A DNA stretch of 64,000 bases, from contig CAZFRF010000001.1 in assembly GCA_964521295.1 (NCBI GenBank), positions 270,146 through 334,145 of the forward strand, in the 5' to 3' direction. The position numbers and the translations under genes are program-made. The notes under the pieces are model-generated. The model made no database searches. It was not told the DNA's origin and was given only the letters and a program-made list of their open reading frames with translations. Origin of the DNA: an uncultured Gammaproteobacteria bacterium (GTDB lineage: Bacteria; Patescibacteriota; Microgenomatia; Levybacterales; UBA12049). Below are positions 9,792 to 29,324 of the stretch, piece by piece; within the stretch, counting starts at the first letter, position 1; each line of letters begins with the position of its first letter.

Positions 9792-10498
9792 GAAGACGAT
9801 CAAGATTATCAAGCTCACAAGAAAAAAAGAACAAAAAAACTATAATTTTTAGCATAATAGGCATCTTAATTATTGTTATCATCATGTATAAATTTGGCGT
9901 TGAAGCATTAATCAACTTCAGTCTCTTCTTAGGAGGCGGAAAAGACTCTCAAGCAACAACCAACACCAAGCAAATCGACTATGTTTCCCCTCCCATAATC
10001 AACTCCCTTCCTTCAGCTACAAATAGCGCATCAATAATAATTACAGGCTCTGCAAAAAAAGGACAAACAATTGAGCTTTATATCAACAGGACTAAAAAAG
10101 CTACAATGACTAAAATTGATAAGGATGGATTCGAATTTACCCAAGATCTAAAAAAAGGTGAAAATCTAATTCAAGTTAAAGCCAAAGAAGAAGATAAGGA
10201 AAGTGATTTTTCTAACTTTTACACTGTTAACTTTCAAAATGAACCACCCAAGCTTGAACTATCCTCACCCGCGGATGGAGATTCATTTCACAGAGAAGAT
10301 AAATCAGCCAATGTAAGAGGTCAAACAGATGCCGGAGTAACTGTTACAGTCAATGGATTTTTTGCGGTAATTGATGAAAGTAATAATTTTTCTTATACAC
10401 TCCCCCTTCACGATGGAGACAATGATATTCAAATAATTGCCCAAGATCAAGCAGGTAATAAAACAGAAAAGAAAATTAGAGTTAACTATTCTCAGTAA
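9788..10498 (+). CDS. Membrane-anchored protein with two tandem Ig-like (Big-type) repeats
   Basis: N-terminal basic stretch plus a TM helix (IIFSIIGILIIVIIMY). There are two about 70-aa repeats with the pattern GQT..G..V.VNG.........F.....L..G.N.I.I.A.D.AGN. Confidence 0.5.
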   Translation: MRRRSRLSSSQEKKNKKTIIFSIIGILIIVIIMYKFGVEALINFSLFLGGGKDSQATTNTKQIDYVSPPIINSLPSATNSASIIITGSAKKGQTIELYINRTKKATMTKIDKDGFEFTQDLKKGENLIQVKAKEEDKESDFSNFYTVNFQNEPPKLELSSPADGDSFHREDKSANVRGQTDAGVTVTVNGFFAVIDESNNFSYTLPLHDGDNDIQIIAQDQAGNKTEKKIRVNYSQ

Positions 10499-11675
10499 TT
10501 CCAATATATATCCATAAAAACTGCATTATATATACATAAAATAGACTATTAATAAATTGACTATTTGCAATTAAACCAACGATTATCGCAACTACAACTA
10601 CGGCCATCTTATTATTTCTTTTTATTTTTGTTAACGCAAAAATCTTTGACAATAAAAATAAATAAATAGTAAGCCCAATTAAACCGGTCGTCGCAATTAC
10701 AAAAAGAAAGCTATTATCCGTACCCGCACCGGCATGCGTTGTCTCCCACTTAGCGTCATTTACTATTCCGTAATCAAACATCACATATCTAAATGCATTA
10801 AAACCTACACCATAAATTAAATTTTGATCAATTATCTTAAGTGCTGCCTTAGCCGAATCAAGCCTAGCTTCTGAGGAAGCTATTCTAAATAAATTTGTGC
10901 CTTCGGTTTGAAAAGATTTAGGTGAAAAAATAGCTAATATTATTAACAAAAACGTAAACAAAACAAGTAATCTTTTTTTGCCAATTAAAATTAAATAAGC
11001 AACCAAAGAAACAACTAACATAACCAAGGCACTTCTGGAAAAGGTTAAGTATATTTCAATGAAATTAAGGGTTAATAATGAAAAGAGCAATACAATCTTT
11101 ATGTAACTTTTACTTTTATATATTTCAAACAGTAAATTTAGTAAAAAGATAAAAGTAATAACCAAAAAAGCCCCTGCGAAATTTGGATCCAAAAATGAGC
11201 CGAATAATCTGTATAAATGCTCATCCCAACCAAGGTAGTATAAATTTCTTAAGCTTTGATAAAAGTTATACTGTATAAGACCAAACCCCAAAATAACCGT
11301 TATAGGTATTAATAAAAAATATTTTATTCTTTTTACAAATTCTTTATCGAAACTACCTATTATGAAATATACTGAAGCATAAAGTATCCAACGAACTAAA
11401 TATAAAGACGAAACAAAAAGTGAATCAATGTCTAGTCTATAAGCATTTAACGCTAATGAAATAATACAGACAGCAATAAACAGCAGTATGGGTTTAGTAA
11501 GATAATATTTTTTAAAACTAATCTTTTTGTTTTGAAAAATGACCCATGTAAATAAATTTGTTAATAATAAAATGTCATTAAGCGTAAATGCAATTGATCC
11601 AAGTTGAATCCTTCCAATTTCTGCAATTGGGAAAATTAATAAACTAATTAAAAAGGAAAATTTTAATAAACCCAT
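10482..11675 (-). CDS. O-antigen ligase / Wzy_C family polytopic membrane protein
   Basis: About 10-12 predicted TM helices. Wzy_C-like conserved Arg (LTFSRSALV), the GVGFNAF motif and the C-terminal HAGAGTDNSFLFVIATTGLIGL (H..N..L.....GLIG) resemble WaaL/O-antigen polymerase signatures. Confidence 0.5.
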   Translation of the reverse strand: MGLLKFSFLISLLIFPIAEIGRIQLGSIAFTLNDILLLTNLFTWVIFQNKKISFKKYYLTKPILLFIAVCIISLALNAYRLDIDSLFVSSLYLVRWILYASVYFIIGSFDKEFVKRIKYFLLIPITVILGFGLIQYNFYQSLRNLYYLGWDEHLYRLFGSFLDPNFAGAFLVITFIFLLNLLFEIYKSKSYIKIVLLFSLLTLNFIEIYLTFSRSALVMLVVSLVAYLILIGKKRLLVLFTFLLIILAIFSPKSFQTEGTNLFRIASSEARLDSAKAALKIIDQNLIYGVGFNAFRYVMFDYGIVNDAKWETTHAGAGTDNSFLFVIATTGLIGLTIYLFLLSKIFALTKIKRNNKMAVVVVAIIVGLIANSQFINSLFYVYIMQFLWIYIGITENS

Positions 11676-11681
11676 ATTTTA

Positions 11682-13235
11682 TTATTTTGAATAGATTTTA
11701 ACATTTGTAACTAGATTTGTATGAATTAATTTCCAATTTCTAAACTCATTTGGCAAAGCTGTATTTTGAACTGCAATATATTTAAATCTATCACCCTTTT
11801 TATAATACGAGTAGTCAATAAAATTAAAATTTGCATAATATAAGTTATGAAATCCAATGGTTAATACCGTATCATTTTCCCCTAGATTAGTTTTAAAAAA
11901 ATTATCCGTATCATAAAAATCTCCAAAAGAAAAATTTAAATGTTTTACTAAAAATTGATCTTTTGTTTCTAAACCAACAATGTATGGCATGTATTTAACG
12001 CTTGCAATAAATCTATAAACTGTTGAGAAAATTGCAATGAAAATTAATAAAATAAACAATATATTTTTTAATACTTTAAATTCAAGCGAGTTATATACTA
12101 CTATAACCAGAATTGAAAAACCTGCAAGATAAGGCAGTAGGTACCTTGCGCCTCCAATTTGCCCGATTATATACCAAGTAACTAAACTTAATATGCAATA
12201 TAAAATCATTACCTTATTATTAAAATTTAACTTCTTATAAACAATAAGCAACAATGGGAAAATAATTATGTATAGTGGATTTATTGGATCAGAACTAAAT
12301 ACCCAAACGCTTATAAAACTTAATAAATCAAAAGAATGAGTAAATACAATTGATTTGGTAAATAAGGGGTAAAATGGATTTCCTGTGTTTAAATATGGAA
12401 TTATTAAACTTGGTAAAACAATAACAAAGGAAATAAATATAAATATGATCAAATATCTTAAAAACGAAATTAATTTTATTTTTTGGTAGTAAAAGACTAC
12501 AAGCAATAAACTGGAATAAATAAAAAGTGAAGAAACTGCTGACAACTTTACACAGATAGATAAGCCAACAAATAATCCCAAAAAAAAGATACTTTTGAAG
12601 GATTTTCTATTAATAAATTCAATAAAATAAGTTAGGGATAAGACCTCAAAAAATAACCATGCCAAATCCACATAGCTTGTATTAAGCTCCCATGCAAAAA
12701 CTAAATTCGAAGACAGAATAAGCGTTGATAGTAAAGATAGTTTTTCAGAAAAAAATTTACGTGATAGATTATAAATTGCAACTAATGCTAATATTCCAAA
12801 TAAAAAATGGATAATCTTTGTAGTAATTTCACTACCAAACATTAATGCAGGAATATACAGAATATCAACTAATTTTGGCATATCAGAATAATAAAAAAGA
12901 TTTCCTGGTATGTGGAAAATCATATGATGAGCTATAAAAATTTTGGGAATAGTTAAGTGATACCATAAGGCGTCAAATCCAATTTCTGGAGCAATTGTAC
13001 CGATTGAATAGATAGTTAATTGAATAAAAAGCAAAACAAGAAGTAATAAATTAGTTTTAATTTTTAAAATATTAGTTATTCTTAAATTAACTTTTAATTT
13101 AGTTAAAATAACTATGCAAAATACTAAATAGAAACCGGTTAATAGTAAAACATTTTGCGGATAAAGAAGCTTAAAAATTCCTAAAAAATAAATTAAATAT
13201 GAATAGATTCCAATTAATATTGCTATTTTAGACAT
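11682..13235 (-). CDS. Polytopic membrane protein, GT-C fold glycosyltransferase-like (ArnT/PMT-like)
   Basis: 517 aa with more than 12 hydrophobic helices and a C-terminal soluble domain. An early periplasmic-loop acidic motif (IGFDALWYH) and paralogy in architecture with 16252-17805 and 40820-42436. No catalytic motif was confirmed. Confidence 0.4.
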   Translation of the reverse strand: MSKIAILIGIYSYLIYFLGIFKLLYPQNVLLLTGFYLVFCIVILTKLKVNLRITNILKIKTNLLLLVLLFIQLTIYSIGTIAPEIGFDALWYHLTIPKIFIAHHMIFHIPGNLFYYSDMPKLVDILYIPALMFGSEITTKIIHFLFGILALVAIYNLSRKFFSEKLSLLSTLILSSNLVFAWELNTSYVDLAWLFFEVLSLTYFIEFINRKSFKSIFFLGLFVGLSICVKLSAVSSLFIYSSLLLVVFYYQKIKLISFLRYLIIFIFISFVIVLPSLIIPYLNTGNPFYPLFTKSIVFTHSFDLLSFISVWVFSSDPINPLYIIIFPLLLIVYKKLNFNNKVMILYCILSLVTWYIIGQIGGARYLLPYLAGFSILVIVVYNSLEFKVLKNILFILLIFIAIFSTVYRFIASVKYMPYIVGLETKDQFLVKHLNFSFGDFYDTDNFFKTNLGENDTVLTIGFHNLYYANFNFIDYSYYKKGDRFKYIAVQNTALPNEFRNWKLIHTNLVTNVKIYSK

Positions 13236-13302
13236 ATGTTTATTTTACAAAGTAAATTTAAAAAATAAATTAACAATATTATTAAAGAATAAACAATAAA
13301 TG

Positions 13303-14067
13303 TTAAGAAGTAGATTTTTTTTGCCATAACTGCCAAAGCTTTGCTCTAACTAAAAATGAATGAAGGCTCATCATCAAAGCAAGAATCAATCCTTCAATTT
13401 TGTCTAAGCATCCTAATTTAAGAAAATAATTTACTAGGAATTTACCCAATGGGTACATTATGATGTCACTGGCTTTAACCTTAATTTTATTACTGTATAA
13501 TTCATTTGCTCTAATTGTTGAATAAAAATTAATTTCACTTAAAAATTCGTTAATTGAAGAATGTGGAAAGTGATTTAAAACTCCTTCCAAATCTCCTATT
13601 TTCCCATCAATTATTAACCTCTCATGTACTTTTCCAACCCAAGCACCACTTCCCTTTTTAATAAGCCGTGCTAAAAAAACTTTTCCTACCTCTCCGTGCA
13701 AAAATTTCTTATTCCACATATAATCAATGCGCCTAATCATATATCCAGCGTATTTTCCTTCGTTATTTATGATTATTGAGTTAATTTCTTCCCTTAATTC
13801 CTTTGATAGCCTTTCATCGGCGTCAACAAATAGTATCCACTTTTTAGTAGCCTTAGATAAACCAAAATTTTTTTGTTTTGCGAAGTCAAAATCCAAATGA
13901 TTTTGATAAATTTTAATTTTCTGAGTATTAAAATTGTTAATTATCTCGAGCGTTCTGTCAGTTGAATAATCATCAATAATAATAATTTCATCGGCCCAAA
14001 TTACACTCTCTAGGCAATCGACTATATTTTTCTCTTCATTTTTAGTTAAAATTATTATGCTTAACAT
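13303..14067 (-). CDS. Glycosyltransferase family 2
   Basis: LSIIILTKNEE...IIIIDDYSTDRT...FVDADE are the classic GT2 DXD and nucleotide-binding motifs. 254 aa, soluble. Confidence 0.75.
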   Translation of the reverse strand: MLSIIILTKNEEKNIVDCLESVIWADEIIIIDDYSTDRTLEIINNFNTQKIKIYQNHLDFDFAKQKNFGLSKATKKWILFVDADERLSKELREEINSIIINNEGKYAGYMIRRIDYMWNKKFLHGEVGKVFLARLIKKGSGAWVGKVHERLIIDGKIGDLEGVLNHFPHSSINEFLSEINFYSTIRANELYSNKIKVKASDIIMYPLGKFLVNYFLKLGCLDKIEGLILALMMSLHSFLVRAKLWQLWQKKSTS

Positions 14068-16255
14068 TTCTATCCCCTTTTATAATTTTAGTTCCAGATG
14101 GCGTTTCATACAAGATATATATCAAATTACTTTTTTGATCGATATTTCCTCCATAAAACCAAATTAAATATTTATAATAATCCAGAAAACTTATAAATTG
14201 ACTACCATCACCTTTTCCAACCAAACGCGCTCCTCTTCCATTAGAATCTTTAACGATGTATTTAGCGGCTTCATTTTTTGAAAAATATTTAACTTTATCT
14301 TCATAAGCTTGATAATATCCAGATGTATTAAGATAAATTAAATTAGTAAGAAGAGATGTGGCAATCAATGCTATAAAAATGATATTTAAAATCTTGCTTT
14401 TAAATATACTACCTAAAAAGGCAGAAACTAAAAGAATTAAGGGAATTATTAGAGAGTAAAGATAAGCATCAGACAAAGTTTTATTTATAAAAATACCCAA
14501 AACTAGAAAAAAACAAATTAAAATAATAATTACAAAACTGCCAGATTTTTTAATAAAAACTCTATAAAACCCATAAACGCTACTAATCAAAAATAAACTT
14601 AACGATATTAAACTAAATTGAATATAAAATAAGCGATTAATAAACTCACTGAAATAACTAACAATTGGACCCAAAGCAAATTCTGAATTAGAATTTAAGA
14701 AAATAGATGACGCTTTATATATTATCCATCCAGCAAAAACAAATGTTTGAGGAAATCCATTTTTTAAATCAAATATTAAAATCGGTATTAACGGGATAAT
14801 TACTGAAACAAGGGACAATATTACTATCTTGTGATTCTTTAGAGATGTAACCCAATTCTTTTTTTTTATTAAACCATAAACAAAAAATAATAATGTAATA
14901 AAAATAAAGATTACAGTTTGTAATTCGAAATTATATAAAAGCGCAAGAAGTAATAAAAGTAAAGGAAAATACATAAAATTACCCTTGGTCCATTTATATA
15001 AAGAGTAAATTGTTAAAATTGTTAGAAAAGGAATTAAGCTTGTATGATATGACATCCTAGATGCCATAATTACATATGGGGAAAATGCATAAAATACTGA
15101 AGCTACCAAACCAGTAGTATTGTTAAATATTCTGGAGGATAATTTATAAACTAAACTTAAAGTTATTAAATCAAGAAACACCGTAAAAAACACAGGGGAT
15201 AAGGGATTAAAATTAAAAACTTTGAAAATTGCTGCTAAAACATATGTCCATAATGCTCCTTGATGTAACCATAAGTGACTTGACGTTATTCCAACTAATG
15301 GTAATTCATTTAGTAGCAGCATATCTCTTGCTGACAAATAAAACCAACCCTGGTCACCAATTCCCAGATTGATTACTGAAGATAAATGGAATATTCGCAT
15401 AGAAGCTGCAAAAACAAAAATTAAGAGAAATATCAAATTATTGATATTTATACTTAAAAATAGATTTAATACTAAAGATTTAAATAACCCAAATTTTTTT
15501 TGAAAATAGTAATTCCTACTTTCTATAAAAATCTCATTTTTATTTTCTAATAACTTTGTCGAGGTTCCCCATTTATGCACTAACTTTAACCTAGAATCAA
15601 TAAATATTTCATAACCCAATGCTCTTACTCTATCGCACAAATCAAACTCTTCGAAATATAAAAAGAATTTTTCATCAAATCCTCCAACTTCAATAAAGAC
15701 TCTTGTTCTAATAACAAACGCCGTGCCAGGAACATTATCTACCCTTGTCGGCTTATTAACATTCCATTTCTTTGTCCAATACTTCTTAGATATAAAATTA
15801 TTAGGGAATATCTTGTCTAAAAAAGAAAATTTTACTACTGCATCAAAAAAATTAACATTCTTGGCTCCTTGGCTCATAATCGATTTGTTGGAATTTAATA
15901 AAAGTGGAGCTACAATCCCTATGTTTGTTTTTTTACTAAATTCTTTGTAAATTGTGGATAAAATATTTTGCGTAAAAACTACATCCGGATTAAGAATAAA
16001 TAAAAATTCTCCTTTGGCATGCTTTGCGCCATAATTAACTCCTGATCCATAACCCAAATTTCTACCAGAATTAAAGTAAATTAGATTTTTATATTTAGTT
16101 AATTTACTTTTTACCGAAGTGTCTTCACTGTTATCTACGATAATTACTTCAAATAGATTTTCTGGATTGAATTCGTACAAGCTGTCTAACGTAATTATTA
16201 AGTCTTGTTCATTTTTATAATAAACAATTATTATCGAATATTTAAAATTTTTCAT
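14042..16255 (-). CDS. Fusion protein: N-terminal GT2 glycosyltransferase plus C-terminal polytopic GT-C-like membrane domain
   Basis: Residues 1 to about 250 show GT2 motifs (IIIVYYKNEQDL, VDNSEDT, GYGSGVNYG, LNPDV, FDE). Residues from about 270 form more than 12 TM helices with a C-terminal soluble tail. 737 aa. Confidence 0.7.
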   Translation of the reverse strand: MKNFKYSIIIVYYKNEQDLIITLDSLYEFNPENLFEVIIVDNSEDTSVKSKLTKYKNLIYFNSGRNLGYGSGVNYGAKHAKGEFLFILNPDVVFTQNILSTIYKEFSKKTNIGIVAPLLLNSNKSIMSQGAKNVNFFDAVVKFSFLDKIFPNNFISKKYWTKKWNVNKPTRVDNVPGTAFVIRTRVFIEVGGFDEKFFLYFEEFDLCDRVRALGYEIFIDSRLKLVHKWGTSTKLLENKNEIFIESRNYYFQKKFGLFKSLVLNLFLSININNLIFLLIFVFAASMRIFHLSSVINLGIGDQGWFYLSARDMLLLNELPLVGITSSHLWLHQGALWTYVLAAIFKVFNFNPLSPVFFTVFLDLITLSLVYKLSSRIFNNTTGLVASVFYAFSPYVIMASRMSYHTSLIPFLTILTIYSLYKWTKGNFMYFPLLLLLLALLYNFELQTVIFIFITLLFFVYGLIKKKNWVTSLKNHKIVILSLVSVIIPLIPILIFDLKNGFPQTFVFAGWIIYKASSIFLNSNSEFALGPIVSYFSEFINRLFYIQFSLISLSLFLISSVYGFYRVFIKKSGSFVIIILICFFLVLGIFINKTLSDAYLYSLIIPLILLVSAFLGSIFKSKILNIIFIALIATSLLTNLIYLNTSGYYQAYEDKVKYFSKNEAAKYIVKDSNGRGARLVGKGDGSQFISFLDYYKYLIWFYGGNIDQKSNLIYILYETPSGTKIIKGDRNVKHNNFN

Positions 16256-17805
16256 TTTGCTTTATATACATAAACTAGCACTGCATTACTTACTTTTACT
16301 TCATAAACGAGATTATATTTTTTCCTTATTTTTTCGTCGTTAAAACCATCTCTAATTATATGATAATGATTAACAACCACATAATCGTATTCTGACTCAT
16401 CATTATATCTTGAATAATTAAAAATGGGATTTTTGGGAAATGTAATTTCCGGTGAAATAGCTAATCCAATTCTCGAATTATCAATGGCATTTTTATTCAA
16501 ATATATCCCGGCTTCTCTTTGCCCTTGGCCCCACCAGCCAATCTGGAATAGGTTGTATTTATATACATTATCTACTCCCCCAATTAATTCATTATAATAG
16601 TCTAAATAATAAGGGGAAACATATACTAAGCTAAGTAATAGATATATTCCAAAGAAAATTAAAATAATTATTTTCTGAAGATACCTTAGTCTTTCTAAGA
16701 CAAAATTCAACCCAACTGCTGAAATAATTGCAATTGCTGGATATATTTCAATAATATATCTAAGCCCATGCTGTCTCCATGAATAGAAAGAAAGCAGGAA
16801 AGGCACTATAAACCATAAAACAATTAGCCACTTTTGATAATTAATACTCTTTAAAACCTTAATCAAGCCTAGGAAAAACAAAACAATTATCACAACTGGT
16901 ATCGAGATAAAAAAATATACTAAATAATAAAAAATAGGCGTTATCCTTAAACTACCCATAAATACTTCTGGCGGTGACAGGGTAAAAATTAATGGGTTAG
17001 GTGAAAATTTAACCGACCAAAGCTTGTCATTTATCTCCATAATTTCTGAAAAATGAAGAACTGCCTGTGGCCAAACTGCAATAAAAACAAAACAAGAAAT
17101 AATAAAAACTTGAATAAAAATTTTAAAATATTTTTTAATATGCTCTTTTTTTTCTTTTTTTATAAAACTTTTACACTTAAACCACATTGCAAAACCAAGA
17201 ATTATAAAAAGAAGCAGATCACTCTGCTTTGCTTGCAATGCAAAACCTGTTAACACTCCTGCTAACAATATTCTTTTCTTAGTAGTTTCCTCTAATAACA
17301 ATAAATAAGAATATATTGCAATTGGATATATAAAAAGTTTTAAGCTTTCTGCAGTCACCAATTGAGACAATCCAACCGTAAAAGGCAACATTAAGTAAAT
17401 AAAACCACTTATTATACCTATATTAAAATTGAATATCTTACCTGAGATTAAAATTACAAATAATAATCCAATTGAAAACAAAACTGCTGATAAAATACGT
17501 GAAAACGTATAATCATAATTAAAAATTGCATTATTCTTAACAGTGGCTTCCTTGTCAAACACGGCACTTACTCCATAGATATATTTAACTAAAGGCGGAT
17601 GATCATATGATGTATAAAAATATTCATTATTAAAATCTCCCTTTTCAAAAATTTTAATAAATTTATATCCTTGCTCTATATATACGCTTTCATCCCAAGT
17701 CCTTCCAATTTCATTTAAGGTTGACAACCTTACTACTAACGAAAAGACAAAGAATAAGAATAAAATGAATACTTTTTTATAGATAATATTAATTTGCAAA
17801 TTCAT
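16252..17805 (-). CDS. GT-C fold membrane glycosyltransferase (GT39/GT83, ArnT/PMT-like)
   Basis: N-terminal TM followed by a periplasmic-loop DE motif (TWDESVY) and YDHPPL, both typical of the PMT/ArnT family. More than 12 TM helices. 517 aa. Confidence 0.6.
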   Translation of the reverse strand: MNLQINIIYKKVFILFLFFVFSLVVRLSTLNEIGRTWDESVYIEQGYKFIKIFEKGDFNNEYFYTSYDHPPLVKYIYGVSAVFDKEATVKNNAIFNYDYTFSRILSAVLFSIGLLFVILISGKIFNFNIGIISGFIYLMLPFTVGLSQLVTAESLKLFIYPIAIYSYLLLLEETTKKRILLAGVLTGFALQAKQSDLLLFIILGFAMWFKCKSFIKKEKKEHIKKYFKIFIQVFIISCFVFIAVWPQAVLHFSEIMEINDKLWSVKFSPNPLIFTLSPPEVFMGSLRITPIFYYLVYFFISIPVVIIVLFFLGLIKVLKSINYQKWLIVLWFIVPFLLSFYSWRQHGLRYIIEIYPAIAIISAVGLNFVLERLRYLQKIIILIFFGIYLLLSLVYVSPYYLDYYNELIGGVDNVYKYNLFQIGWWGQGQREAGIYLNKNAIDNSRIGLAISPEITFPKNPIFNYSRYNDESEYDYVVVNHYHIIRDGFNDEKIRKKYNLVYEVKVSNAVLVYVYKAK

Positions 17806-20151: not shown

Positions 20152-21396
20152 ATGTTTATAATAATATGCTGCCCCATAAAAATGAAAATTAACCAGTGTA
20201 GATCTTGTGGATCAAAGAATTTATTAAAAATAGTATCTTTAGGTAAACAGTATTTGTCTGACTTTACTAAGACGAATAAGAAACCTAAATCCTTCCCCTT
20301 GACAATGATGGTATGTAAAAAATGTTTTCTAGTCCAATTAGACTACAATACTCCACAAAAATATTTATATACTCCTAGATATGGGTACAAATCAGGCATA
20401 AACCAAACAATGCACGATGAATTAAGAGGCATTGCTCAAGAAGCGTTTAAAAAAATCAAAAAAACAAAGGAAAAAATTGTAGTAATCGATATTGGCGCTA
20501 ACGATGGCACTCTACTAAGCTACTACCCAAAAAATCTACATAGAATTGCTGTTGAACCAATAAAAAAACTTGCAGAAATATCAAAGAAGCATGCTAATGA
20601 GGTTGTAAATAATTTCTTTAGTTATGAATCCTACAAAAGAAAGACAAAAAATTTACATGCAGATGTTATTTCTGCAATATCTTGCTTCTATGATATGGAA
20701 GATCCAAACAAATTTGTTGCTGATGTAAAGAAAATAATGAAAGAAGATGGAATTTTTATAATTCAACAAAATTATTTAGTTAGTATGTTAAAAATAAATG
20801 CATTCGACAATATCGTCCATGAACATTTAGAATATTACTCCTTACTATCCTTAAATAATCTTTTAGAAAAACATGGCATGGAAGTATTTGATGTTGAAAC
20901 AAGAACTTTAAACGGCGGAAGCTTCAGAACATATATTGCGCTAAAAGGGAAGAGAAAAATATCTAAAAGTGTTTTAGAGATGCAGAAGACGGAAAAAAGG
21001 CTAAAATTAAATAATAAGAAAATTTACCTCGATTTCGCTAAAAGAATCGCAAAAGAAAAAGAAAAAATTACAGAGTTTATTAAAAAAGAAGTTAAAAAAG
21101 GAAAAAGAGTTTATTTATATGGAGCTTCAACTCGAGGCAATACAATGCTTCAGTACTTTGGTCTTGACCATAAGCTTATTCAATTTGCAGTCGAAAGAAA
21201 TCCAGAAAAATTCGGAAAAATAATATCCTCAGTTGGGATACCAATTATTTCTGAGGAACAGGCCAGGAAAGATAAGCCAGAGTATATGTTAGTATTACCA
21301 TGGTTTTTCAAAGAAGAATTTCTAAAGAGAGAAAAAGATTATCTAAAAAAAGGCGGTCATTTTATCTTCCCCTTGCCTAAATTGGAAATTATCTAG
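20152..21396 (+). CDS. Sugar C-methyltransferase: N-terminal Zn-ribbon plus class I SAM methyltransferase plus C-methyltransferase C-terminal domain
   Basis: CRSCGS...CKKC zinc ribbon, SAM-binding VIDIGANDGTLL, and an NDP-hexose C-methyltransferase-like tail (TylCIII-like architecture). The true start is probably the ATG at about 20182 (MKINQCRSCG). Confidence 0.65.
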   Translation: MFIIICCPIKMKINQCRSCGSKNLLKIVSLGKQYLSDFTKTNKKPKSFPLTMMVCKKCFLVQLDYNTPQKYLYTPRYGYKSGINQTMHDELRGIAQEAFKKIKKTKEKIVVIDIGANDGTLLSYYPKNLHRIAVEPIKKLAEISKKHANEVVNNFFSYESYKRKTKNLHADVISAISCFYDMEDPNKFVADVKKIMKEDGIFIIQQNYLVSMLKINAFDNIVHEHLEYYSLLSLNNLLEKHGMEVFDVETRTLNGGSFRTYIALKGKRKISKSVLEMQKTEKRLKLNNKKIYLDFAKRIAKEKEKITEFIKKEVKKGKRVYLYGASTRGNTMLQYFGLDHKLIQFAVERNPEKFGKIISSVGIPIISEEQARKDKPEYMLVLPWFFKEEFLKREKDYLKKGGHFIFPLPKLEII

Positions 21397-22099
21397 TTAA
21401 TCTTAATTTAATAACATAAAACAAAGAAACTAATAGCTCTTGAATGTTAACATTTGATTTTCCATAAATTCTATAATTCCAAGTAATTGGTACCTCGCCG
21501 ATTAGGAATTTTTGTTTATTAATTTTATATAAAACTTCCGATAAAGTAATAAAGCCCTTTGATTCAATTCTTGTTTTTAACAAATAATCAATACTTTTTC
21601 TTGAATACAACCTAAAACCACTTGTAAAATCAGATACTTTAACATTTAACCAAAATTTTAAATAAAAATTTATAACTCTACTTAATATTGTTCTATTTTT
21701 TGTAATATTTTTAATTCTACTTCCTTTCAAGTATCTCGATCCAATAACCAAATCATATTGATTAGTTTTAATTTTATTTATAAATCTTTTAATTTCTGCT
21801 GCATCATGAGCTAAATCAGAATCCATCTCTAGGAAATAATGTATGTTTTTTAATTTATAAGCTTCCCTGAAGCCCAACATTACTGCACTTCCTCTTCCAG
21901 ACTTTTTCATACGTGAAATAAGCTTAACATTTGTATACAAACGCATGGCTTTTTTAATTTTTTCATTCTCTTCGGGCCTAGAATCATCTATTATAAAAAT
22001 CTTAAAAGAGGGATATGAATTCTTAATTTTTTTTACCAAAATTTTAAGGTTTTCGGATTCATTGTAGGATGGAATAATAACAGCAAAATTATTTTTCAT
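21389..22099 (-). CDS. GT2 glycosyltransferase, polyprenyl-phosphate sugar synthase (DPM1/GtrB-like)
   Basis: AVIIPSYNESENL, IIDDSRPE, MDSDLAH and the size (236 aa) match dolichyl/undecaprenyl-phosphate mannose or glucose synthases. Confidence 0.7.
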   Translation of the reverse strand: MKNNFAVIIPSYNESENLKILVKKIKNSYPSFKIFIIDDSRPEENEKIKKAMRLYTNVKLISRMKKSGRGSAVMLGFREAYKLKNIHYFLEMDSDLAHDAAEIKRFINKIKTNQYDLVIGSRYLKGSRIKNITKNRTILSRVINFYLKFWLNVKVSDFTSGFRLYSRKSIDYLLKTRIESKGFITLSEVLYKINKQKFLIGEVPITWNYRIYGKSNVNIQELLVSLFYVIKLRLTR

Positions 22100-24675
22100 T
22101 TTTTATAAATACTTATTTCAACAGGGCTTTGAACAATCGCAGCCATATAGTAGTTTAAATCATTTGTAAACAGAAATAAATATTTAAAATTAGGAGAAAA
22201 TTCTTTTATCAATTTATATTTATTTTTCTGTAAATTTTTATATATATCTTTTGTTTCTGAATTATGTTTATACATAGATTCAATACCAACGTTAGTTAGA
22301 ATTACATATTCAGGATAGGTTTTATCACTTGTTTGTATTATTTTGTATTTATATTTATTATTATTCTCGATCTTATACTGCTTAAAATAAAACTCTTTAA
22401 CAACCAAGTCTGGCAACCCTTGATAAATTGGAATATTTTGTATTCCAATTGTAGAATTTATTGGAATATTTTTATTTATCCAATACGTTGATGATTGACG
22501 AGGATCACTAAATAATTTTAGAGGCATCCATGAAAATGATTCAACTACCTGGAGAAGGATAATGAAAATTATAAAAATTAGAATTAACAAGTTATTAAAT
22601 CTTTTCAACAAAAACTTAATAAGATAACTAACAAAATATGCAAAAAATGGAATTAAAATTAATACTCGATTATTTGTAGCATCTAATTTTAAAGGAATTA
22701 AGCTACAGGCAAATAAAATAAAAATTATAATAAAAGTAATTAATGTTCTATTTTCAAAAATATATCTATATTTATTTTTTAAAATAAATATGTTTCCTAG
22801 TAAAATAGAAATAAAAAGAATCATACCTAAAATTGCAATAATATAAAAAGTATGACTAAAAAGAGTAGGAAATAAATCTATTAATAAATAAGGCCAAATT
22901 TTGTTTGTAATTTGAAAATTTGCCACATTAAAATCTGGTGTCCTAGATAAAGTAGATGAAAGATATTCATTTAAACTACCCTTAGCCAAAAGAATATCTA
23001 TGACTCCGAAAGATAAAAAAGTGGATATATATATCACTCCTCCCTTTATAAGAGTAAAGATATGACTTCTCCAATTTTTATTAAAAATAAATATTAATCC
23101 TAATATCGGAATAAGCGCAAAAGGTGAAAGCTTTACGGATAAAGCCAAGGCGGATAATAAACATGCAAAGTAAAAATAATAATACTTAAATTCTTTTACG
23201 TATTTCAGAATAAATAGTATTGATAATAATGTCCAAAACATTAAGGCAATATCGTACTTAAAATACCCACTTAACATTAGCCACATAGGATTAAAAGTAA
23301 AAAAGAAGGTTGAGATCACTGGATTAATTTTTAAAATTTTTTTAGATAAATAATAAAACGCAAGAATACTTAATATTCCAAACAAAATAGTATTTGTACG
23401 CAAAACAATAAATAAGACCTGTTGAATATCAATGTTTAATACAGATGATTTGATTAAAAAAGGATTTACGACTTTTATTACCATAAACGGAATTAAATAT
23501 AAACCCGTTAAGAAAAAATGGAATATTGATCCATTTGCGGAGCCAGAAATATTTGGAGAACCAAATTTAAATAAGTTTCTTACTGACTGACTTTGATGCC
23601 ACTCATCCATAAAGTAATTAAAAGGATGACTATTTCCAGGAATTCCCCAACTAATCTGCGCCAGGCAAGCCCCAATGTAAATTAATAAAATAATTAAAAG
23701 CATTCTTTGCTTAAACAGTTTTCTTGTTAATAAATTAAAATTTACACCTACAAAAAACGCCTTAACTGTTCCAGACAAAACAGCAAAATCTGCAATAAAT
23801 TGAATCAGCGGCAAAAATATTAAACCTTTAATATTTTTTACATATTTATAATTTTTAAGAATTATCCAGAACAAATAAACTATCGCCCCTCCAGTAATCA
23901 ATAAATTTAGATACAATGATTTCATAATTGGAATCAAAATTACTAAATAGAGAGCAATAAAATATCTATAAATAAGCCAAAAAACTTTTTCTCTAATAAT
24001 ACCCGACTCAATATCTCCATATGCAAATCTATAAAACATTTTAAAAGCTGATTTTATATTAGATCTAGGTTGCCAATAGACAATCGCGTTTTGAATAAAT
24101 TTAATATTAAAACCTTCGTCCTTTATTTTGTTTGCAAACACATAATCTTCATTGTGGGAATATTTAACATCAAAGCCCCCAATACTCGACCATACTTTTT
24201 TCCTTAAAGCCATTGATCTTGTAGCAGGTAAAAAAGTGTTTGGATCCACTTTATCTGGCATAACCAATGCATATGGTATTAATGACTTTTGAAAAATACT
24301 TGCATGTTTCCCTTTATAATATCCAGCAACAACATCTACATTTGGAGAAAAAGATGAATACATATTTTTTACCCAATCTTTATGAAGCTCACATCCAGAA
24401 TCAGTAATTAGTATAATCTCAAATTTTGATTTTTTAATCGCTAAATTTCTACCTAAAGACCGATTCCCTTTTTTAACAAAAAATTTGATATTTAATTTTT
24501 TATGTTTCGAAGAAATTTCTTGGATTTTATTAACAGTTTTATCATTACTTCCCCCGTCAACAATTATAATTTCCGATGGTAATAGTGTCTGCTTGACTAC
24601 AGACTCTAAAAACCTACTAACTGTATCCTCTTCGTTTAAAACAGTACAAATTAATGAACATTTAGCCTTAGCCAT
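22096..24675 (-). CDS. Fusion protein: N-terminal GT2 glycosyltransferase plus large C-terminal polytopic membrane domain
   Basis: N-terminal CSLICTVLNEEDTV, IIIVDGGSNDKT, ITDSGCE, NEDYVF are GT2 motifs. About 15 TM helices and a Lys/Tyr-rich soluble tail follow. 859 aa. Same architecture as 14042-16255. Confidence 0.7.
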   Translation of the reverse strand: MAKAKCSLICTVLNEEDTVSRFLESVVKQTLLPSEIIIVDGGSNDKTVNKIQEISSKHKKLNIKFFVKKGNRSLGRNLAIKKSKFEIILITDSGCELHKDWVKNMYSSFSPNVDVVAGYYKGKHASIFQKSLIPYALVMPDKVDPNTFLPATRSMALRKKVWSSIGGFDVKYSHNEDYVFANKIKDEGFNIKFIQNAIVYWQPRSNIKSAFKMFYRFAYGDIESGIIREKVFWLIYRYFIALYLVILIPIMKSLYLNLLITGGAIVYLFWIILKNYKYVKNIKGLIFLPLIQFIADFAVLSGTVKAFFVGVNFNLLTRKLFKQRMLLIILLIYIGACLAQISWGIPGNSHPFNYFMDEWHQSQSVRNLFKFGSPNISGSANGSIFHFFLTGLYLIPFMVIKVVNPFLIKSSVLNIDIQQVLFIVLRTNTILFGILSILAFYYLSKKILKINPVISTFFFTFNPMWLMLSGYFKYDIALMFWTLLSILFILKYVKEFKYYYFYFACLLSALALSVKLSPFALIPILGLIFIFNKNWRSHIFTLIKGGVIYISTFLSFGVIDILLAKGSLNEYLSSTLSRTPDFNVANFQITNKIWPYLLIDLFPTLFSHTFYIIAILGMILFISILLGNIFILKNKYRYIFENRTLITFIIIFILFACSLIPLKLDATNNRVLILIPFFAYFVSYLIKFLLKRFNNLLILIFIIFIILLQVVESFSWMPLKLFSDPRQSSTYWINKNIPINSTIGIQNIPIYQGLPDLVVKEFYFKQYKIENNNKYKYKIIQTSDKTYPEYVILTNVGIESMYKHNSETKDIYKNLQKNKYKLIKEFSPNFKYLFLFTNDLNYYMAAIVQSPVEISIYKK

Positions 24676-24722
24676 ATTGTGGTTGAATTATAGCACCTCC
24701 TACATTAGAATACAGAGATATT

Positions 24723-26582
24723 ATGGGATTCATTAATTCTTTATTTACTAATATAATTCAGAATTTTAATTATGTAAAAAATGATTTTACGGGATTTAAT
24801 TTAGATATTAGTTTTATACTAAATTTTATTTTCAATTTAATCGTAACAGTAATTATATTTAATCTAACATATTTATTTGGAAAGAAAATATTTTCATTAT
24901 TTAATAAAAACTTTGAAAGTAAACCATACTCTTATCTTGTCTCAATTGGAATAGGATATATTTTTTCATCATTAGGAATTACCTTACTCGGCTTCTTTCA
25001 TTTGCTTTACCCTCAATTAATCTCAATCTATCTTTTATGCATTATTTTTATTTCATTTTTTCCATTTAATAATTTAAAAAAAACATTTTTTGAATTATTT
25101 ATATATATTAAAAATGAAATTATCTATTTCAAGCAATTTAAGGCAATTTTTATTGTTGCTTTTCTTTTTATTTTACTCGGATTTATTAATCTTATTAATC
25201 CCGAATACAGAGAAGATCAATACCATGTTGACTTACCAAGGCAGTATTTAAAATTTAACACAAATATGATTCCACCAAAGGAACAACTACATGTTTCAGC
25301 AGCTCCTCAAACCGCAGAATCGTATTATTTAATTGGAATATTTTTATTATCTAAAGAAGCAGCTAGATTTTTACATTTTTACTTTTATTTACTAACAATC
25401 TTAGCATTGATAAACTATTCAAAAATAAGCAGTAAATATAAATTTGCTATCTATACACCTCTACTATTAGTAAGCAGTCCTGTCATTATTAAAGAAACCT
25501 CATCCATGTATACAGACTTCCAATGGCTCTTCTGCTTACTCATTTCAACTTTAATATTAATTGATCAGTATAAAAATAAATTAGCTACTTATTCATTGTC
25601 TGGATTATTCTTTGGTGGCATAGTTGCTTCAAAACTCTGGACAATTATATTTTACCCAGTGTTCATTATTTTTCTTACTTTTCTAAATAAATTTAAAAAA
25701 ATAACAATTAAATATATAGTATTATTTATTTCTTTTTCTCTTGTTACGTATGGAATTTGGATAATAAGATCATATATTTTAACAGGTAATCCGTTATATC
25801 CAGCATTTATTGATCATCTAAATCTTGATGGGACAAGAGAGAAAATAAATTTGTTTCAGTATATTGGAATAAATTATGGGTTACTTAATCCAAAGTATTT
25901 TATAAATGTATTTTCTCCTTTGTTTTTTGTTGGAATATTATTTTGTATTTTAAATTTCAAAAACATTTATAAAAAAATAAATCTATTACAAATTAATAAA
26001 ATAATTTTCATCACGTTTATTACATATTTACTAGTCCAATATATCTTTGGGAGATATATGATTGGACTCTATATTTTCTTAATCTTCATTTCCGCTCTTT
26101 CAATTAATGAGTTTGTTAAAAAAAATAAATTACTAAACGCTGTTTTAATATTTATGCCAATAATTGTATTTATTTATTATTTTATAAATTCTTTTTTAAT
26201 ATTGCCCTACTCGCTTGGCTTCAGCGATAAAAATAATTATTTAACGCGAATTTTAATAAGAGATAATTCAAGTTATTTTGATTTTGGGAAACAGTTTAAT
26301 AAATATATAAAAAGTGATGATGTTGTTGGATTCTATAATTTCCATGGGTATTATTATGCAGACTTTCAATATACTGATGTAAATTTTTTAATTAATAAGA
26401 GAGAACAGTCGATTCTGACATTGAAAAAAAATGGCATAAAATTATTAATATTAAGAGGTGATAATTTTAAATTTTTCTGTAAGAAATATTCACTAAAAGA
26501 TTGTGATACATATCAACCCAAACTTATTTCGCAATATAATTTCTTTCCTTTCATATTTTTATATTCTTTTAAGAATTTATGA
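24723..26582 (+). CDS. Polytopic membrane protein (possible GT-C-like), function unknown
   Basis: 619 aa, more than 12 hydrophobic helices with a C-terminal soluble region. Lies inside the glycosylation locus. No motif identified. Confidence 0.4.
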   Translation: MGFINSLFTNIIQNFNYVKNDFTGFNLDISFILNFIFNLIVTVIIFNLTYLFGKKIFSLFNKNFESKPYSYLVSIGIGYIFSSLGITLLGFFHLLYPQLISIYLLCIIFISFFPFNNLKKTFFELFIYIKNEIIYFKQFKAIFIVAFLFILLGFINLINPEYREDQYHVDLPRQYLKFNTNMIPPKEQLHVSAAPQTAESYYLIGIFLLSKEAARFLHFYFYLLTILALINYSKISSKYKFAIYTPLLLVSSPVIIKETSSMYTDFQWLFCLLISTLILIDQYKNKLATYSLSGLFFGGIVASKLWTIIFYPVFIIFLTFLNKFKKITIKYIVLFISFSLVTYGIWIIRSYILTGNPLYPAFIDHLNLDGTREKINLFQYIGINYGLLNPKYFINVFSPLFFVGILFCILNFKNIYKKINLLQINKIIFITFITYLLVQYIFGRYMIGLYIFLIFISALSINEFVKKNKLLNAVLIFMPIIVFIYYFINSFLILPYSLGFSDKNNYLTRILIRDNSSYFDFGKQFNKYIKSDDVVGFYNFHGYYYADFQYTDVNFLINKREQSILTLKKNGIKLLILRGDNFKFFCKKYSLKDCDTYQPKLISQYNFFPFIFLYSFKNL

Positions 26583-28324
26583 TAACACCATATAAATTAG
26601 TATTCATAAACCTGTTATTTTTAATTTTTTTAACTTTGCTTATTTTTATATTCAAAATAATTTTTCCAAAAAAGAAAGTTAACCCTTTATTTTTACTTTT
26701 ATTATTAAGTCTAGGTACATCAATTAGCATATTACGCATTGGCTCATATGAAAGTGGGGATTTCAATATACATGCCTACAGGTCCATTGAATTCTATAAA
26801 AATATCCTTGAAGGATTCATTTATCCTTCTTGGGCAGGAGACTTAAACGCATTATATGGTTTACCATTATTTATGTTTAATTATACTTTACCTTACTACT
26901 TTACAACGATCGCGCACCTTATAGGATTTTCATTTATTAATTCGTTAAAATTTTTTCTAATTACTAATTTAGTATTAACAAGTTTATTTAGTTATATTTT
27001 AGGATTAACAGTATTTAATAATAACAAGTTGCATGCATTTGTATTTGCAATCTTATATTCTTTTTTTCCTTATCATCTGATTTCTGTGCATTATAAGATC
27101 ACACTTGGTGAAATATCTTCCTATACATTACTTCCTTTATTTTTTTATTTTGTCTCACTAACTAATAAAACTAAAAAAAATATATTTCTTATACATTCAT
27201 CGTTAATTTATTATTTTATATTTATTAGTCATATTTTCATAGCAATTTTTACTATTCCACTATTGTTCTCATATTTATTTATAAATGGCAATGATAAATT
27301 AAGAAATTTAATCAAATTTTCTTTTATAGTGATTTTTTCATTAACATTATCAGCATACCAATGGGTACCAAGTATTTTATTTCAATCTCAACTTTATATA
27401 ACACATATTAATATAGATCTAAACAACATATTCTTCCCATCAATCATCGATCTACTATATTCGCCTTGGAGATTTGGTTTTTTATTTCAAGGGCCAAACG
27501 GAGAAATATCTTACTTACTCGGTTACACTCAAATAGCATTAATTTTAATTACGATAATTTTTATATATAAACGTAGATTTTTAAATTTTGAAAAAAAACA
27601 AATATACTTTTGGCTTATTTTTTTCGTTTTATATTTATTTCTACTACTCCCTCAATCTAAACTATTTTGGGACTTTATACCTATATTGGGTGGCTCTGGA
27701 CCACATAGACTACTAGTTATTATGGGTTTAATAACAACTTTTATCTGCTCTATTACAATAAGTAAAATAAAAAATAAAAAAGTAATTTACTTAATAATAT
27801 TATTTGCTATAGGATCAACCATTTTAAACTGGGGACATAGAAAAGTTATACCCGAAATAAACGATGAATATTTAATAAAAACTCTTCCTCTTAGCACTTA
27901 TAATATAGACAATCATTTTTATGCAGCTACAATTTATCAAAACCCAAAAAAGCTATGGGAAAATATGATTCCAATTAATTCATTTCAACCGAACGAATCA
28001 ATTTCTTCCATTATTATCAAAAGATCTCAAAATGAACATATATATAAAATGTCTGTGAAATACAATACAATCGTAAGTGAAAATACTTTATATTTTCCTG
28101 GATGGAATGTATATGCAAATAATAATAAATTAAAAATTTACCCAAATAATAAGGGGCACATTTCTTTTGCTATTAATAAAGGAGAATATATTGTTTTAAT
28201 TAAATATGAGGATGTTTATATTATCAGCTTACTTAAAAAAATAAGTTTATTTTTATTTATAGCATCTCTACTCACCATAGTCCTTATTAAAATTAAATCT
28301 TCCAAAGTTTTATATAAACATTAG
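26579..28324 (+). CDS. Polytopic membrane protein (possible GT-C-like), function unknown
   Basis: 581 aa, more than 12 hydrophobic helices plus a C-terminal beta-rich domain. Translationally coupled to the upstream gene (4-bp overlap). Confidence 0.4.
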   Translation: MITPYKLVFINLLFLIFLTLLIFIFKIIFPKKKVNPLFLLLLLSLGTSISILRIGSYESGDFNIHAYRSIEFYKNILEGFIYPSWAGDLNALYGLPLFMFNYTLPYYFTTIAHLIGFSFINSLKFFLITNLVLTSLFSYILGLTVFNNNKLHAFVFAILYSFFPYHLISVHYKITLGEISSYTLLPLFFYFVSLTNKTKKNIFLIHSSLIYYFIFISHIFIAIFTIPLLFSYLFINGNDKLRNLIKFSFIVIFSLTLSAYQWVPSILFQSQLYITHINIDLNNIFFPSIIDLLYSPWRFGFLFQGPNGEISYLLGYTQIALILITIIFIYKRRFLNFEKKQIYFWLIFFVLYLFLLLPQSKLFWDFIPILGGSGPHRLLVIMGLITTFICSITISKIKNKKVIYLIILFAIGSTILNWGHRKVIPEINDEYLIKTLPLSTYNIDNHFYAATIYQNPKKLWENMIPINSFQPNESISSIIIKRSQNEHIYKMSVKYNTIVSENTLYFPGWNVYANNNKLKIYPNNKGHISFAINKGEYIVLIKYEDVYIISLLKKISLFLFIASLLTIVLIKIKSSKVLYKH

Positions 28325-29324
28325 TCACTTCCTCCCATGTCAAAAGAATCTTGGAAGCACTTGAATAATTCAATATATCTTTATTTAATAAATATTTTTT
28401 TATAGAATTTGAGACTTGATAACTGTCTTTACATATAAATATGTTTTTGCTGAATGGCGTCATCTCTAAATAATCTTTTTTAATTTCGTTATTATACACA
28501 GCGAAAATAGGTTTTTTGGCAGCTAATGCCTCAAGTATTCCTAAATACCTAGAAACAAATACATATGAATAGTTGGGTAAAAATTTTTCAACATTATATA
28601 CAAATCCTTTAAAGGATACGTTTAATTTATGTCTTTTAACAAATCTAAAAGCATTTTTAAATTGTTCACCATTCCCATATACATCTAGACTTAGTTCATT
28701 ATTTTCATCTTTTAATATTTTTATCGCTTTCAAATAATCCATTATTCCAGCTTCCTCTTCTAATCTACCAATATACATTACTTTATTTGAAAATTTGATT
28801 TTACTGTTATTAAATTTTTGCTTTTCTACTCCTCCAAAAATAACGAAAGTTGGATTTGTTTTATACCATTTTTTAAAAAAATCTCCTACACATATATTTC
28901 CTCTTGAAAGTTTTTCCGCAAGTTTATGCATAAACTTCGCTTTTAAGTTTGGGATATTATTCCCCTCATAACCGTGAAAAGTTGTATAGATTTTTTTATT
29001 AAAAAATAAAAATCTAAATGGTAAATACCAATAGAAAACATCATGACAATGTACAATATCTGCTTGTCTTATTTCGTTCAGGTATTTAAATAAATTTATC
29101 CAAATAATAAACTTTTTAAGCTTATTCTCTTTTATTGAAGGTATGAAAATTACCTCCTCACCATTATTGTGTAGGTTTAATTTTTTATTATTGACTACAG
29201 GTTCTTCGGCAATAATTTTAACTGAGTATCCTTTTTTAATTAATTCTTTACTAATTTGCCAAATATGCTTTTCTACTCCTCCAATATTTGGATAATAAGA
29301 TCTTGTTAAAAATAAAATTTTCAT
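28293..29324 (-). CDS. Glycosyltransferase family 4 (GT-B fold)
   Basis: N-terminal MKILFLTRSYYPNIGGVEKH is a typical GT4 N-terminal donor-substrate loop. 343 aa. Confidence 0.7.
   Translation of the reverse strand: MKILFLTRSYYPNIGGVEKHIWQISKELIKKGYSVKIIAEEPVVNNKKLNLHNNGEEVIFIPSIKENKLKKFIIWINLFKYLNEIRQADIVHCHDVFYWYLPFRFLFFNKKIYTTFHGYEGNNIPNLKAKFMHKLAEKLSRGNICVGDFFKKWYKTNPTFVIFGGVEKQKFNNSKIKFSNKVMYIGRLEEEAGIMDYLKAIKILKDENNELSLDVYGNGEQFKNAFRFVKRHKLNVSFKGFVYNVEKFLPNYSYVFVSRYLGILEALAAKKPIFAVYNNEIKKDYLEMTPFSKNIFICKDSYQVSNSIKKYLLNKDILNYSSASKILLTWEEVTNVYIKLWKI

Follow-up and report, generated by a model that had tools for sequence, protein, structure and literature searches.

We analysed a 64,000-nt window of contig CAZFRF010000001.1 (assembly GCA_964521295.1) and propose that the segment at 10482-29324 is a locus for cell-surface glycan assembly, typical of its lineage, in a Levybacteria-type bacterium (a monoderm of the Patescibacteria or Candidate Phyla Radiation, CPR); it combines a conserved core with a variable decorating arm. 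We assign this reading a probability of roughly 0.55. By analogy, the product is best read as that of a polyprenyl-phosphate-based cell-surface glycopolymer line, likened to the multi-component systems for rhamnose-containing cell wall polysaccharides (Rha-CWPS) and group A carbohydrate (GAC) in Gram-positive bacteria, or to mycobacterial arabinogalactan assembly. The segment is filled end to end by 13 open reading frames (ORFs) that are separated by gaps of 6-67 nt or overlap, and a Pfam scan assigned all 13 consecutive genes to glycan assembly; as every gene is glycan-related and the gene order is conserved across many genomes (see below), chance is ruled out as an explanation.

Gene content of the locus

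The inventory comprises one Wzy_C protein, one Wzx flippase, two glycosyltransferases of family 4 (GT4), one C-methyltransferase, four domains of glycosyltransferase family 2 (GT2; at 13303-14067, at 21389-22099 and at the N-termini of 14042-16255 and 22096-24675) and six polytopic GT-C proteins (11682-13235, 14042-16255, 16252-17805, 22096-24675, 24723-26582 and 26579-28324). A sequence-only reading of the same DNA, made without database searches, had delimited the cluster at exactly 10482-29324 and named protein classes that are all present by Pfam, but it counted eighteen genes where we count 13. Its four GT2 enzymes do exist as domains, two of them being parts of GT-C proteins and not separate genes, whereas its "at least five" GT-C-like polytopic proteins proved to be six. 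The DE and YDHPPL motifs that it placed in 16252-17805 are located on the minus strand as WDES...YDHPPL at 17590-17697. Strand and spacing divide the genes into four predicted units: a long minus-strand operon running from Wzx to Wzy_C, the lone C-methyltransferase (20152-21396), the 859-aa fusion with the 236-aa GT2, and a plus-strand pair (24723-28324) on which the second GT4 (28293-29324) converges. A scan for consensus promoters and terminators found no enrichment relative to shuffles (132 sites versus 140 expected; 6 versus 5.6).

Core genes and their convergent neighbour:
9788-10498 (+): membrane-anchored Ig-like protein with Glucodextran_B/Big domains, convergent neighbour of Wzy_C (Glucodextran_B E 4e-19)
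10482-11675 (-): Wzy_C-family polytopic protein of the ligase/polymerase/O-oligosaccharyltransferase type (Wzy_C E 4e-16)
11682-13235 (-): GT-C protein GTC1, 517 aa, paralog of 24723-26582 (PMT_2 29.0 bits, cutoff 26.1)
13303-14067 (-): soluble GT2, 254 aa, no transmembrane (TM) segment (Glycos_transf_2 E 4e-23)
14042-16255 (-): fusion GT2::GT-C (GT2 plus PMT_2), 737 aa (Pfam and AlphaFold2 (AF2) model)
17789-18904 (-): cytoplasmic GT4 of the GT-B fold (Glycos_transf_1 E 5e-22; Glyco_transf_4)
18901-20124 (-): Wzx-type (MOP) flippase, first gene of the long minus-strand operon (Polysacc_synt_3 E 7e-72)

Variable-arm genes:
16252-17805 (-): PMT/GT39-like GT-C protein GTC3, 517 aa (PMT_2 E 1e-8, 36 bits)
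20152-21396 (+): C-methyltransferase of the type acting on nucleoside-diphosphate (NDP) sugars (Methyltransf_14 E 9e-50; Methyltransf_13 E 6e-13)
21389-22099 (-): DPM1/DPMS-like polyprenyl-phosphate glycosyltransferase, 236 aa, no TM segment (PDB matches)
22096-24675 (-): second fusion GT2::GT-C, 859 aa (GT2 plus weak PMT_2; AF2 model)
24723-26582 (+): GT-C protein GTC5, 619 aa, paralog of GTC1 (weak PMT_2 and LIC_10190 family matches)
26579-28324 (+): GT-C protein GTC6, 581 aa, PTPS_related/YfhO-like (PTPS_related E 9e-6)
28293-29324 (-): second cytoplasmic GT4 (Glyco_transf_4 E 2e-13; Glycos_transf_1 E 6e-12)

Conservation of the core in Levybacteria

A scan of one genome per species recovered 209 loci with the core fusion. 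Among the best 80 of these 209, almost all belong to Levybacteria/Levyibacteriota, the others being generically labelled metagenome-assembled genomes, one Woesebacteria, one Microgenomates and three titled Saccharimonadales, Negativicutes and Actinomycetota; homologs with a named source come from Candidatus Levybacteria, Microgenomates, Roizmanbacteria or Patescibacteria. ORFs were called in 85 fetched related loci, 51 of them full-length, and assigned to the window genes by phmmer. The order Wzx, GT4, GT2::GT-C (~730 aa), GT2 (~250 aa), GT-C (~530 aa), Wzy_C (~400 aa) and convergent Ig-like gene (~236 aa) is repeated next to the ATP synthase operon in 43 of the 51 full-length loci, and it holds from 82% down to ~35% protein identity in many Levybacteria and a Woesebacteria genome. 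The position of Wzx is kept in related loci, and the Ig-like gene adjoins Wzy_C in nearly all of them. The locus is vertically inherited within the lineage.

The remaining genes (the 859-aa fusion, the DPMS-like GT2, the C-methyltransferase, GTC3, GTC5, GTC6 and the second GT4) make up the variable arm: the PMT-like gene has homologs in 26 of the 85 fetched loci and the DPM1-like GT2 in ~36. In relatives this arm also holds S-adenosylmethionine (SAM) methyltransferases, epimerase/dehydratases, GT87 genes, a UDP-GlcNAc 2-epimerase, heptose-nucleotide genes and unannotated polytopic ORFs, a content typical of surface-glycan diversification. Several other recurrent polytopic ORFs of ~400-660 aa in these loci have no Pfam match or a sub-threshold match to DUF7657. 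In one relative (L005:1557-6672) genes for a GHMP kinase, a SIS isomerase, a nucleotidyl-transferase, a HAD phosphatase and a transaldolase adjoin the C-methyltransferase; the set looks like a heptose-nucleotide pathway and suggests that the glycan of that strain may contain heptose. The related 22-kb loci encode 2-6 GT-C-bearing ORFs (median 3), which places the window at the upper end of the lineage norm, so that the number of GT-C genes, called unusual by the sequence-only reading, is indeed so against the background of bacteria generally but not within the lineage.

GT-C character of the six polytopic proteins

The profile matches and a conserved catalytic loop argue that all six polytopic proteins are true GT-C enzymes and not transporters. 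A hydropathy scan predicted 8-13 TM segments in each. Matches to solved GT-C structures were found, the structure models covering the two fusions (737 and 859 aa) among the six; both fusions have the GT-C fold, with an all-helical TM part. We built ortholog alignments for each GT-C family from the related loci and compared them by profile-profile alignment (hhalign) with the GTC3 family (16252-17805). The 859-aa family matched at 98.5% (E 2e-15), the family of 11682/24723 at 98.4% (E 4e-15, 391 columns), the 737-aa family at 96.4% (E 1e-9) and the GTC6 family (26579-28324) at 86% (E 5e-6).

In every family, invariant acidic residues occur shortly after the first GT-C helix: D38/E39 in 16252-17805, D301 in 14042-16255, D357/E358 in 22096-24675, E84/D88 in both 11682-13235 and 24723-26582, and D61 in 26579-28324. 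The motif probably lies in the first extracytoplasmic loop, the number of TM segments and the cytoplasmic position of the GT-A domain suggesting that it faces outward. Around these residues each family has its own signature. The GTC1 family keeps P83, E84, D88, Y92 and H93, and GTC5 has the invariant PE..D..YH motif in common with it; the 737-aa fusion carries an invariant IGDQGW loop (15341-15361) and the 859-aa fusion an invariant MDEWH motif (23596-23610); G60 and D61 are invariant in GTC6, whose orthologs all match PTPS_related (10 of 10, best E 2.6e-14), with three of the ten also matching PMT_2. Profile comparison and invariant acidic residues thus both speak against the transporter identity that the sequence-only reading had named as grounds for giving up its proposal. 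Its term "paralogs" needs qualification: by BLASTP only 11682-13235 and 24723-26582 are detectably similar (27% identity over 503 aa, E 2.7e-26), and the six GT-Cs are old, divergent families and not recent duplicates.

Outside the locus, at a distance of 11 kb, is a seventh GT-C (40820-42436, plus strand; PMT_2 E 8e-13, ~11 TM segments). It is adjoined by an ORF for a cytochrome-b5-like haem-binding protein (42440-42826, minus strand; E 6e-20), a find not expected in a CPR genome.

GTC3 is PMT/GT39-like. D38, E39 and P70 are invariant in 18 orthologs, its family profile matches the solved PMT 9i5k (E 9.9e-5 over 150 residues) and its DHPPL motif aligns with HPPLGKLL of that enzyme, while a single-sequence search of the PDB returned only noise. 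In NCBI records its homologs carry the name "glycosyltransferase family 39 protein". The window protein matches the PMT_2 model and not PMT (PF02366), which some orthologs carry; neither a protein acceptor nor mannose follows from the PMT_2 match.

Gene fusions as evidence of probable pairing

Fusions between cytoplasmic transferases and GT-C domains occur in the window and, in other combinations, in its relatives. In the 737-aa protein, a Leloir GT-A domain (residues ~1-238, window ~15542-16255) precedes the GT-C part (~265-737), and this GT-A domain resembles the glycan-elongating enzymes WrtF, GlfT2, RmlT and TarP rather than DPMS/GtrB. In the 859-aa protein, a membrane-embedded, minimal cellulose-synthase-like GT2 (residues ~1-340) precedes the GT-C part (~340-859); in other genomes the same protein is split into genes of ~320 and ~550 aa.

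A further case concerns the DPM1-like synthase at 21389-22099, an assignment of the sequence-only reading that PDB searches uphold: the only matches of this protein are the P. furiosus Dol-P-Man synthase (PfDPMS 5mlz, E 2.9e-23, residues 5-230) and ArnC (~1e-8). It falls below the NCBIfam equivalog cutoffs for AglJ (65.5 versus 325 bits), PpgS (63.1 versus 370), ArnC (50.1 versus 529) and PgfS (48.5 versus 500). Its placement in the class of polyprenyl-phosphate glycosyltransferases is supported, that as a specific enzyme with a specific sugar is not. In three relatives (L003, L057 and L071) its full-length ortholog (52-61% identity) makes up the N-terminal part of a protein of 752-764 aa that otherwise consists of the GTC3 ortholog (41-57% identity). 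Since their orthologs are fused in relatives, the DPMS-like synthase and the PMT-like transferase would work together, as in Ppm1/Pmt logic; we take the fusion as evidence of a donor-synthase/donor-user relation and infer that the DPMS-like GT2 supplies the donor for GTC3. More generally, the presence of this synthase in the locus and its fusion to a GT-C in relatives hint indirectly that the GT-Cs may use polyprenyl-phosphate-linked donors.

Among the best 120 database homologs of GTC3, 26 have an N-terminal GT2 and nine an N-terminal GT4, and these fused proteins come from many independent assemblies. In-frame fusions of the GT4 ortholog to the GTC3 ortholog (~885-900 aa) occur at L013:758-3463 and L050:7318-9978 and in nine database proteins (P0246, P0249 and P0250 among them), and they are not sequencing artefacts, as they recur in independent assemblies. 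We take the repeated joining and separation of inner-face transferases and outer-face GT-Cs in this lineage as evidence that they act as pairs.

A bolder idea, which we put forward tentatively and think rather doubtful, is that the GT-A::GT-C, DPMS::GT39-like and GT4::GT39-like fusions are single-polypeptide trans-membrane glycosylation modules that physically couple sugar transfer or donor synthesis at the inner face to GT-C transfer at the outer face, in which the TM domain might hand a lipid-linked intermediate across the membrane without a GtrA-type flippase, yielding a CPR-specific surface polymer for contact between episymbiont and host.

Proposed route of synthesis

The locus encodes both a Wzx flippase and a Wzy/WaaL-family protein, as in Wzx/Wzy pathways, and it encodes together a GT2 polyprenyl-phosphate-sugar synthase, a flippase of the Wzx type and GT-Cs, as in multi-component glycosylation. 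On the proposed route, the GT4s, the soluble GT2 and the GT-A domain of the 737-aa fusion would build an oligosaccharide on a polyprenyl phosphate carrier at the cytoplasmic face, and the C-methyltransferase (a Zn-binding N-terminus, a SAM domain and a C-terminal domain) would provide a C-methylated NDP-sugar. Wzx would flip the lipid-linked glycan, which at the outer face Wzy_C and the core GT-Cs would polymerise and/or pass to the final acceptor, be it a wall polymer, a lipid or a protein. The Wzy_C protein has ~10 predicted TM segments and five residues (R214, R264, R271, H314 and D320) that are invariant in 25 orthologs; a family profile search found no PDB sequence match for it. The variable arm would add side-chain sugars from polyprenyl-monophosphate sugars: the DPMS-like GT2 would make the donor for the PMT/GT39-like GTC3, and the remaining GT-Cs may act likewise with other donors or acceptors.

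A Pfam scan of the ORFs of at least 100 aa judged to be genes, which passed over a few short, nested or overlapping ORFs, found MraY (59348-60361, in the dcw cluster) as the only phosphoglycosyl transferase; initiation would therefore take place elsewhere in the genome or on polyprenyl monophosphate. There was likewise none among the ten commonest unassigned ORF clusters of the related loci, five of which have no Pfam match. Between MurA and MraY, in the same mur/dcw cluster, lies an NTP_transferase nucleotidyl-transferase (60420-61157, minus strand; E 2e-24) that is a possible nucleotide-sugar supplier.

Alternative readings of the product

Several observations weigh against the glycopolymer reading. 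The best PDB matches of the core GT2 (13303-14067), confined to its N-terminal ~118 aa, are Listeria GmaR (E 1e-14) and SunS (E 6e-11), both of them protein or peptide glycosyltransferases, and the Wzy_C family also includes protein O-oligosaccharyltransferases; on these two counts a protein would be an equally possible acceptor for part or all of the pathway. The simple scheme does not account for the N-terminal module of the 859-aa fusion, which resembles a minimal cellulose-synthase-like GT2. As a textbook pathway the locus is incomplete, since neither an LCP-type ligase nor a chain-length regulator or priming enzyme was found in it.

The foremost rival is the one that the sequence-only reading preferred, a protein O-glycosylation machine, which we regard as a genuine possibility if on balance an unlikely one. 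The DPMS-like GT2 would make a polyprenyl-phosphate sugar with which the PMT/GT39-like and YfhO-like GT-Cs glycosylate Ser/Thr of secreted or membrane-anchored proteins (pilins, S-layer or Ig-like proteins), and Wzy_C would be an en-bloc O-oligosaccharyltransferase for a Wzx-flipped oligosaccharide. The PMT-type DE and HPPL signature of GTC3 with its family-profile match to a solved PMT and its GT39-named homologs, the synthase::PMT-like fusions of the relatives, the kinship of the core GT2 with GmaR and SunS and the membrane-anchored Ig-like protein next to Wzy_C all favour it. So does the precedent of the streptococcal GtrB/PgtC2 and PgfS/PgfM1, monoderm GT2 and GT-C pairs that glycosylate Ser/Thr-rich regions of membrane-associated proteins (PMC12041528). 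The PMT/GT39-like gene and the DPM1-like synthase are present as claimed, but they sit in the variable arm and not in the core. Moreover, teichoic acids and lipid A are also among the substrates of the PMT_2 and YfhO families, so that membership does not reveal the acceptor, and four further cytoplasmic glycosyltransferase domains together with Wzx point to an oligosaccharide or polymer and not to single-sugar O-mannosylation. Nor does the contrast with classical O-antigen synthesis drawn in that reading hold, as the conserved core consists of Wzx, Wzy_C and Leloir GT4/GT2 enzymes, that is, of Wzx/Wzy-type logic.

The Ig-like neighbour (an N-terminal TM segment, a short S/T/N/Q linker and Glucodextran_B/Big domains) could be a partner or an acceptor. 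As an obvious Ser/Thr-rich acceptor it is a weak candidate: the linker is short and modestly enriched in these residues, with a Ser plus Thr fraction of only 0.22, which also counts against O-glycosylation.

A decidedly improbable reading is that of a membrane-anchored lipoglycan of the lipomannan (LM)/lipoarabinomannan (LAM) type, in which the GT-Cs would extend an outer-face glycolipid from polyprenyl-phosphate sugars and the 859-aa GT2::GT-C would glycosylate a lipid acceptor. Many different GT-Cs next to a polyprenyl-phosphate-sugar synthase are the pattern known from mycobacterial LM, LAM and arabinogalactan synthesis; GT87 genes, which encode GT-Cs of the mycobacterial mannosyltransferase type, occur in four related loci (among them L074:12926-14026), and the GT2 domain of the 859-aa protein matches the Glyco_transf_21 and HpnI-type lipid glycosyltransferase families. 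Wzx and Wzy_C, however, have no part in LM/LAM synthesis, and no PimA/PimB-type initiating enzymes were identified.

That the locus is a horizontally acquired O-antigen- or capsule-type genomic island between two tRNA genes is scarcely credible and was rejected: GC content does fall from 0.34-0.36 to 0.24-0.29 across exactly 10482-29324, with tRNA-Thr (9160-9232) and tRNA-Val (30033-30105) on either side, but the synteny beside the ATP synthase operon is lineage-wide, GC at third codon positions is unchanged (0.17-0.27 inside, 0.19-0.28 in the flanks) and Pfam scans found no integrase or mobility gene. As the dip lies in codon positions 1 and 2, it reflects an Ile/Phe/Lys/Asn-rich protein composition.

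Comparison with known systems

The closest working analogues of the locus are found equally among the monoderm pathways for cell-wall polysaccharides that include GT-C steps (PMC10821137) and in protein O-glycosylation (PMC12041528). In the lactococcal WpsA/B and streptococcal GacI/J systems, initiation takes place on polyprenyl monophosphate, and these systems combine a Wzx-type flippase, GT-C transferases and extra GT2 and GT-C side-chain modules (PMC10821137). What the locus would have in common with Rha-CWPS/polysaccharide pellicle synthesis and the "four-component" GacI/J/K/L system (PMC10821137) is a monoderm envelope, a TM-less GT2 that charges polyprenyl monophosphate, elongation by cytoplasmic glycosyltransferases, a Wzx-type flippase (18901-20124, as GacK/WpsG), outer-face polymerisation or transfer by GT-Cs, extra GT2 and GT-C side-chain pairs, and a variable gene set driving surface diversity. 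Unlike those systems, it has no rhamnan ABC-transporter branch, GacJ/WpsB-like activator or LCP ligase that we could see, but does have Wzy_C, GT-A and GT-C domains fused in two proteins and six GT-Cs in one locus; sequence identity is negligible, the relations being at the Pfam level only.

The pairing of a DPMS/ArnC-like GT2 (21389-22099) with a GT-C (16252-17805), together with a YfhO/PTPS_related-like GT-C (26579-28324), recalls the three-component systems of periplasmic glycosylation (GtrA/GtrB/Gtr*, CsbB/GtcA/YfhO and ArnC/ArnT). No GtrA/GtcA-type small flippase was found in the locus, however, and its synthase lacks the C-terminal TM helices of GtrB and forms one polypeptide with the GT-C in relatives. 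Protein O-mannosylation by Ppm1 or Dpm1 and Pmt (GT39) in actinobacteria and eukaryotes is similar in its DPMS-like synthase, in a GT-C with DE and HPPL motifs in the first outer loop, in the GT39 naming of homologs and in the profile match to a solved PMT. It differs in that GTC3 has no MIR domains and matches the PMT_2 and not the PMT model, and in that the pair here is accessory, not core, and embedded in a Wzx/Wzy_C locus.

Wzx/Wzy loci for O-antigen, capsule or S-layer glycan likewise combine Wzx, a Wzy_C-family protein, several Leloir glycosyltransferases and a sugar-modifying methyltransferase at a GC content below that of the flanks. The present locus departs from them in having six GT-Cs and no priming phosphoglycosyl transferase, chain-length regulator or export proteins, and in being vertically conserved and not mobile; moreover, neither outer membrane nor lipopolysaccharide is expected in CPR. 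From mycobacterial arabinogalactan/LAM assembly it differs in the lack of sequence-level orthology, in the presence of Wzx and Wzy_C, and in having its genes clustered and partly fused, whereas those of mycobacteria are scattered. At the sequence level, the locus is a member of neither the monoderm polysaccharide systems nor mycobacterial arabinogalactan/LAM assembly.

All the protein families are known, public records annotate them generically as glycosyltransferases, and nothing in the locus contradicts current principles. A literature search found no paper on the locus, on how it is conserved in Levybacteria or on the GT-A::GT-C, DPMS::GT39-like and GT4::GT39-like fusions, and a search on CPR/Levybacteria glycosylation loci and GT2-PMT_2 fusions returned nothing specific.

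Other genes in the window

At the borders of the locus, a GNAT ORF (9207-9791, GTG start at 9207) overlaps tRNA-Thr (9160-9232); its orthologs have 184 aa, and its true start probably lies ~30 nt downstream of 9207. On the other side, a single-TM ORF of 207 aa without a family match (29372-29995, minus strand) lies between the locus and tRNA-Val; no counterpart was seen beside the related loci. Further away and separate from the locus is a sugar-metabolism pair made up of a GT4 (46731-47837, minus strand) and a GDE_C/MGH1-like glycoside hydrolase (47907-49217, minus strand). A protein with a CAP12/Pycsar-type TIR effector domain (51402-52319, minus strand; E 7e-39) has neighbours at 49385-50191, 50895-51359 and 52428-53096, and the surrounding ORFs have no Pfam match; the region may be a small anti-phage defence islet.

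Implications for CPR surface biology

Next to nothing is known of the surface chemistry of CPR/Patescibacteria, ultrasmall episymbionts that for the most part have not been cultured. The genome devotes ~2% (19 kb) of its ~0.94-Mb contig to this locus, and the retention of the core across Levybacteria argues that the product is a central envelope component, one that could well be involved in host attachment or phage recognition. The fusions of cytoplasmic GT-A or GT-B domains to outer-face GT-Cs predict testable pairings of donor-making and donor-using enzymes and offer compact targets for structural and biochemical work on the passage of lipid-linked sugars across the membrane. The locus may thus serve as an entry point into CPR surface chemistry and into the coupling of inner-face and outer-face glycosylation.

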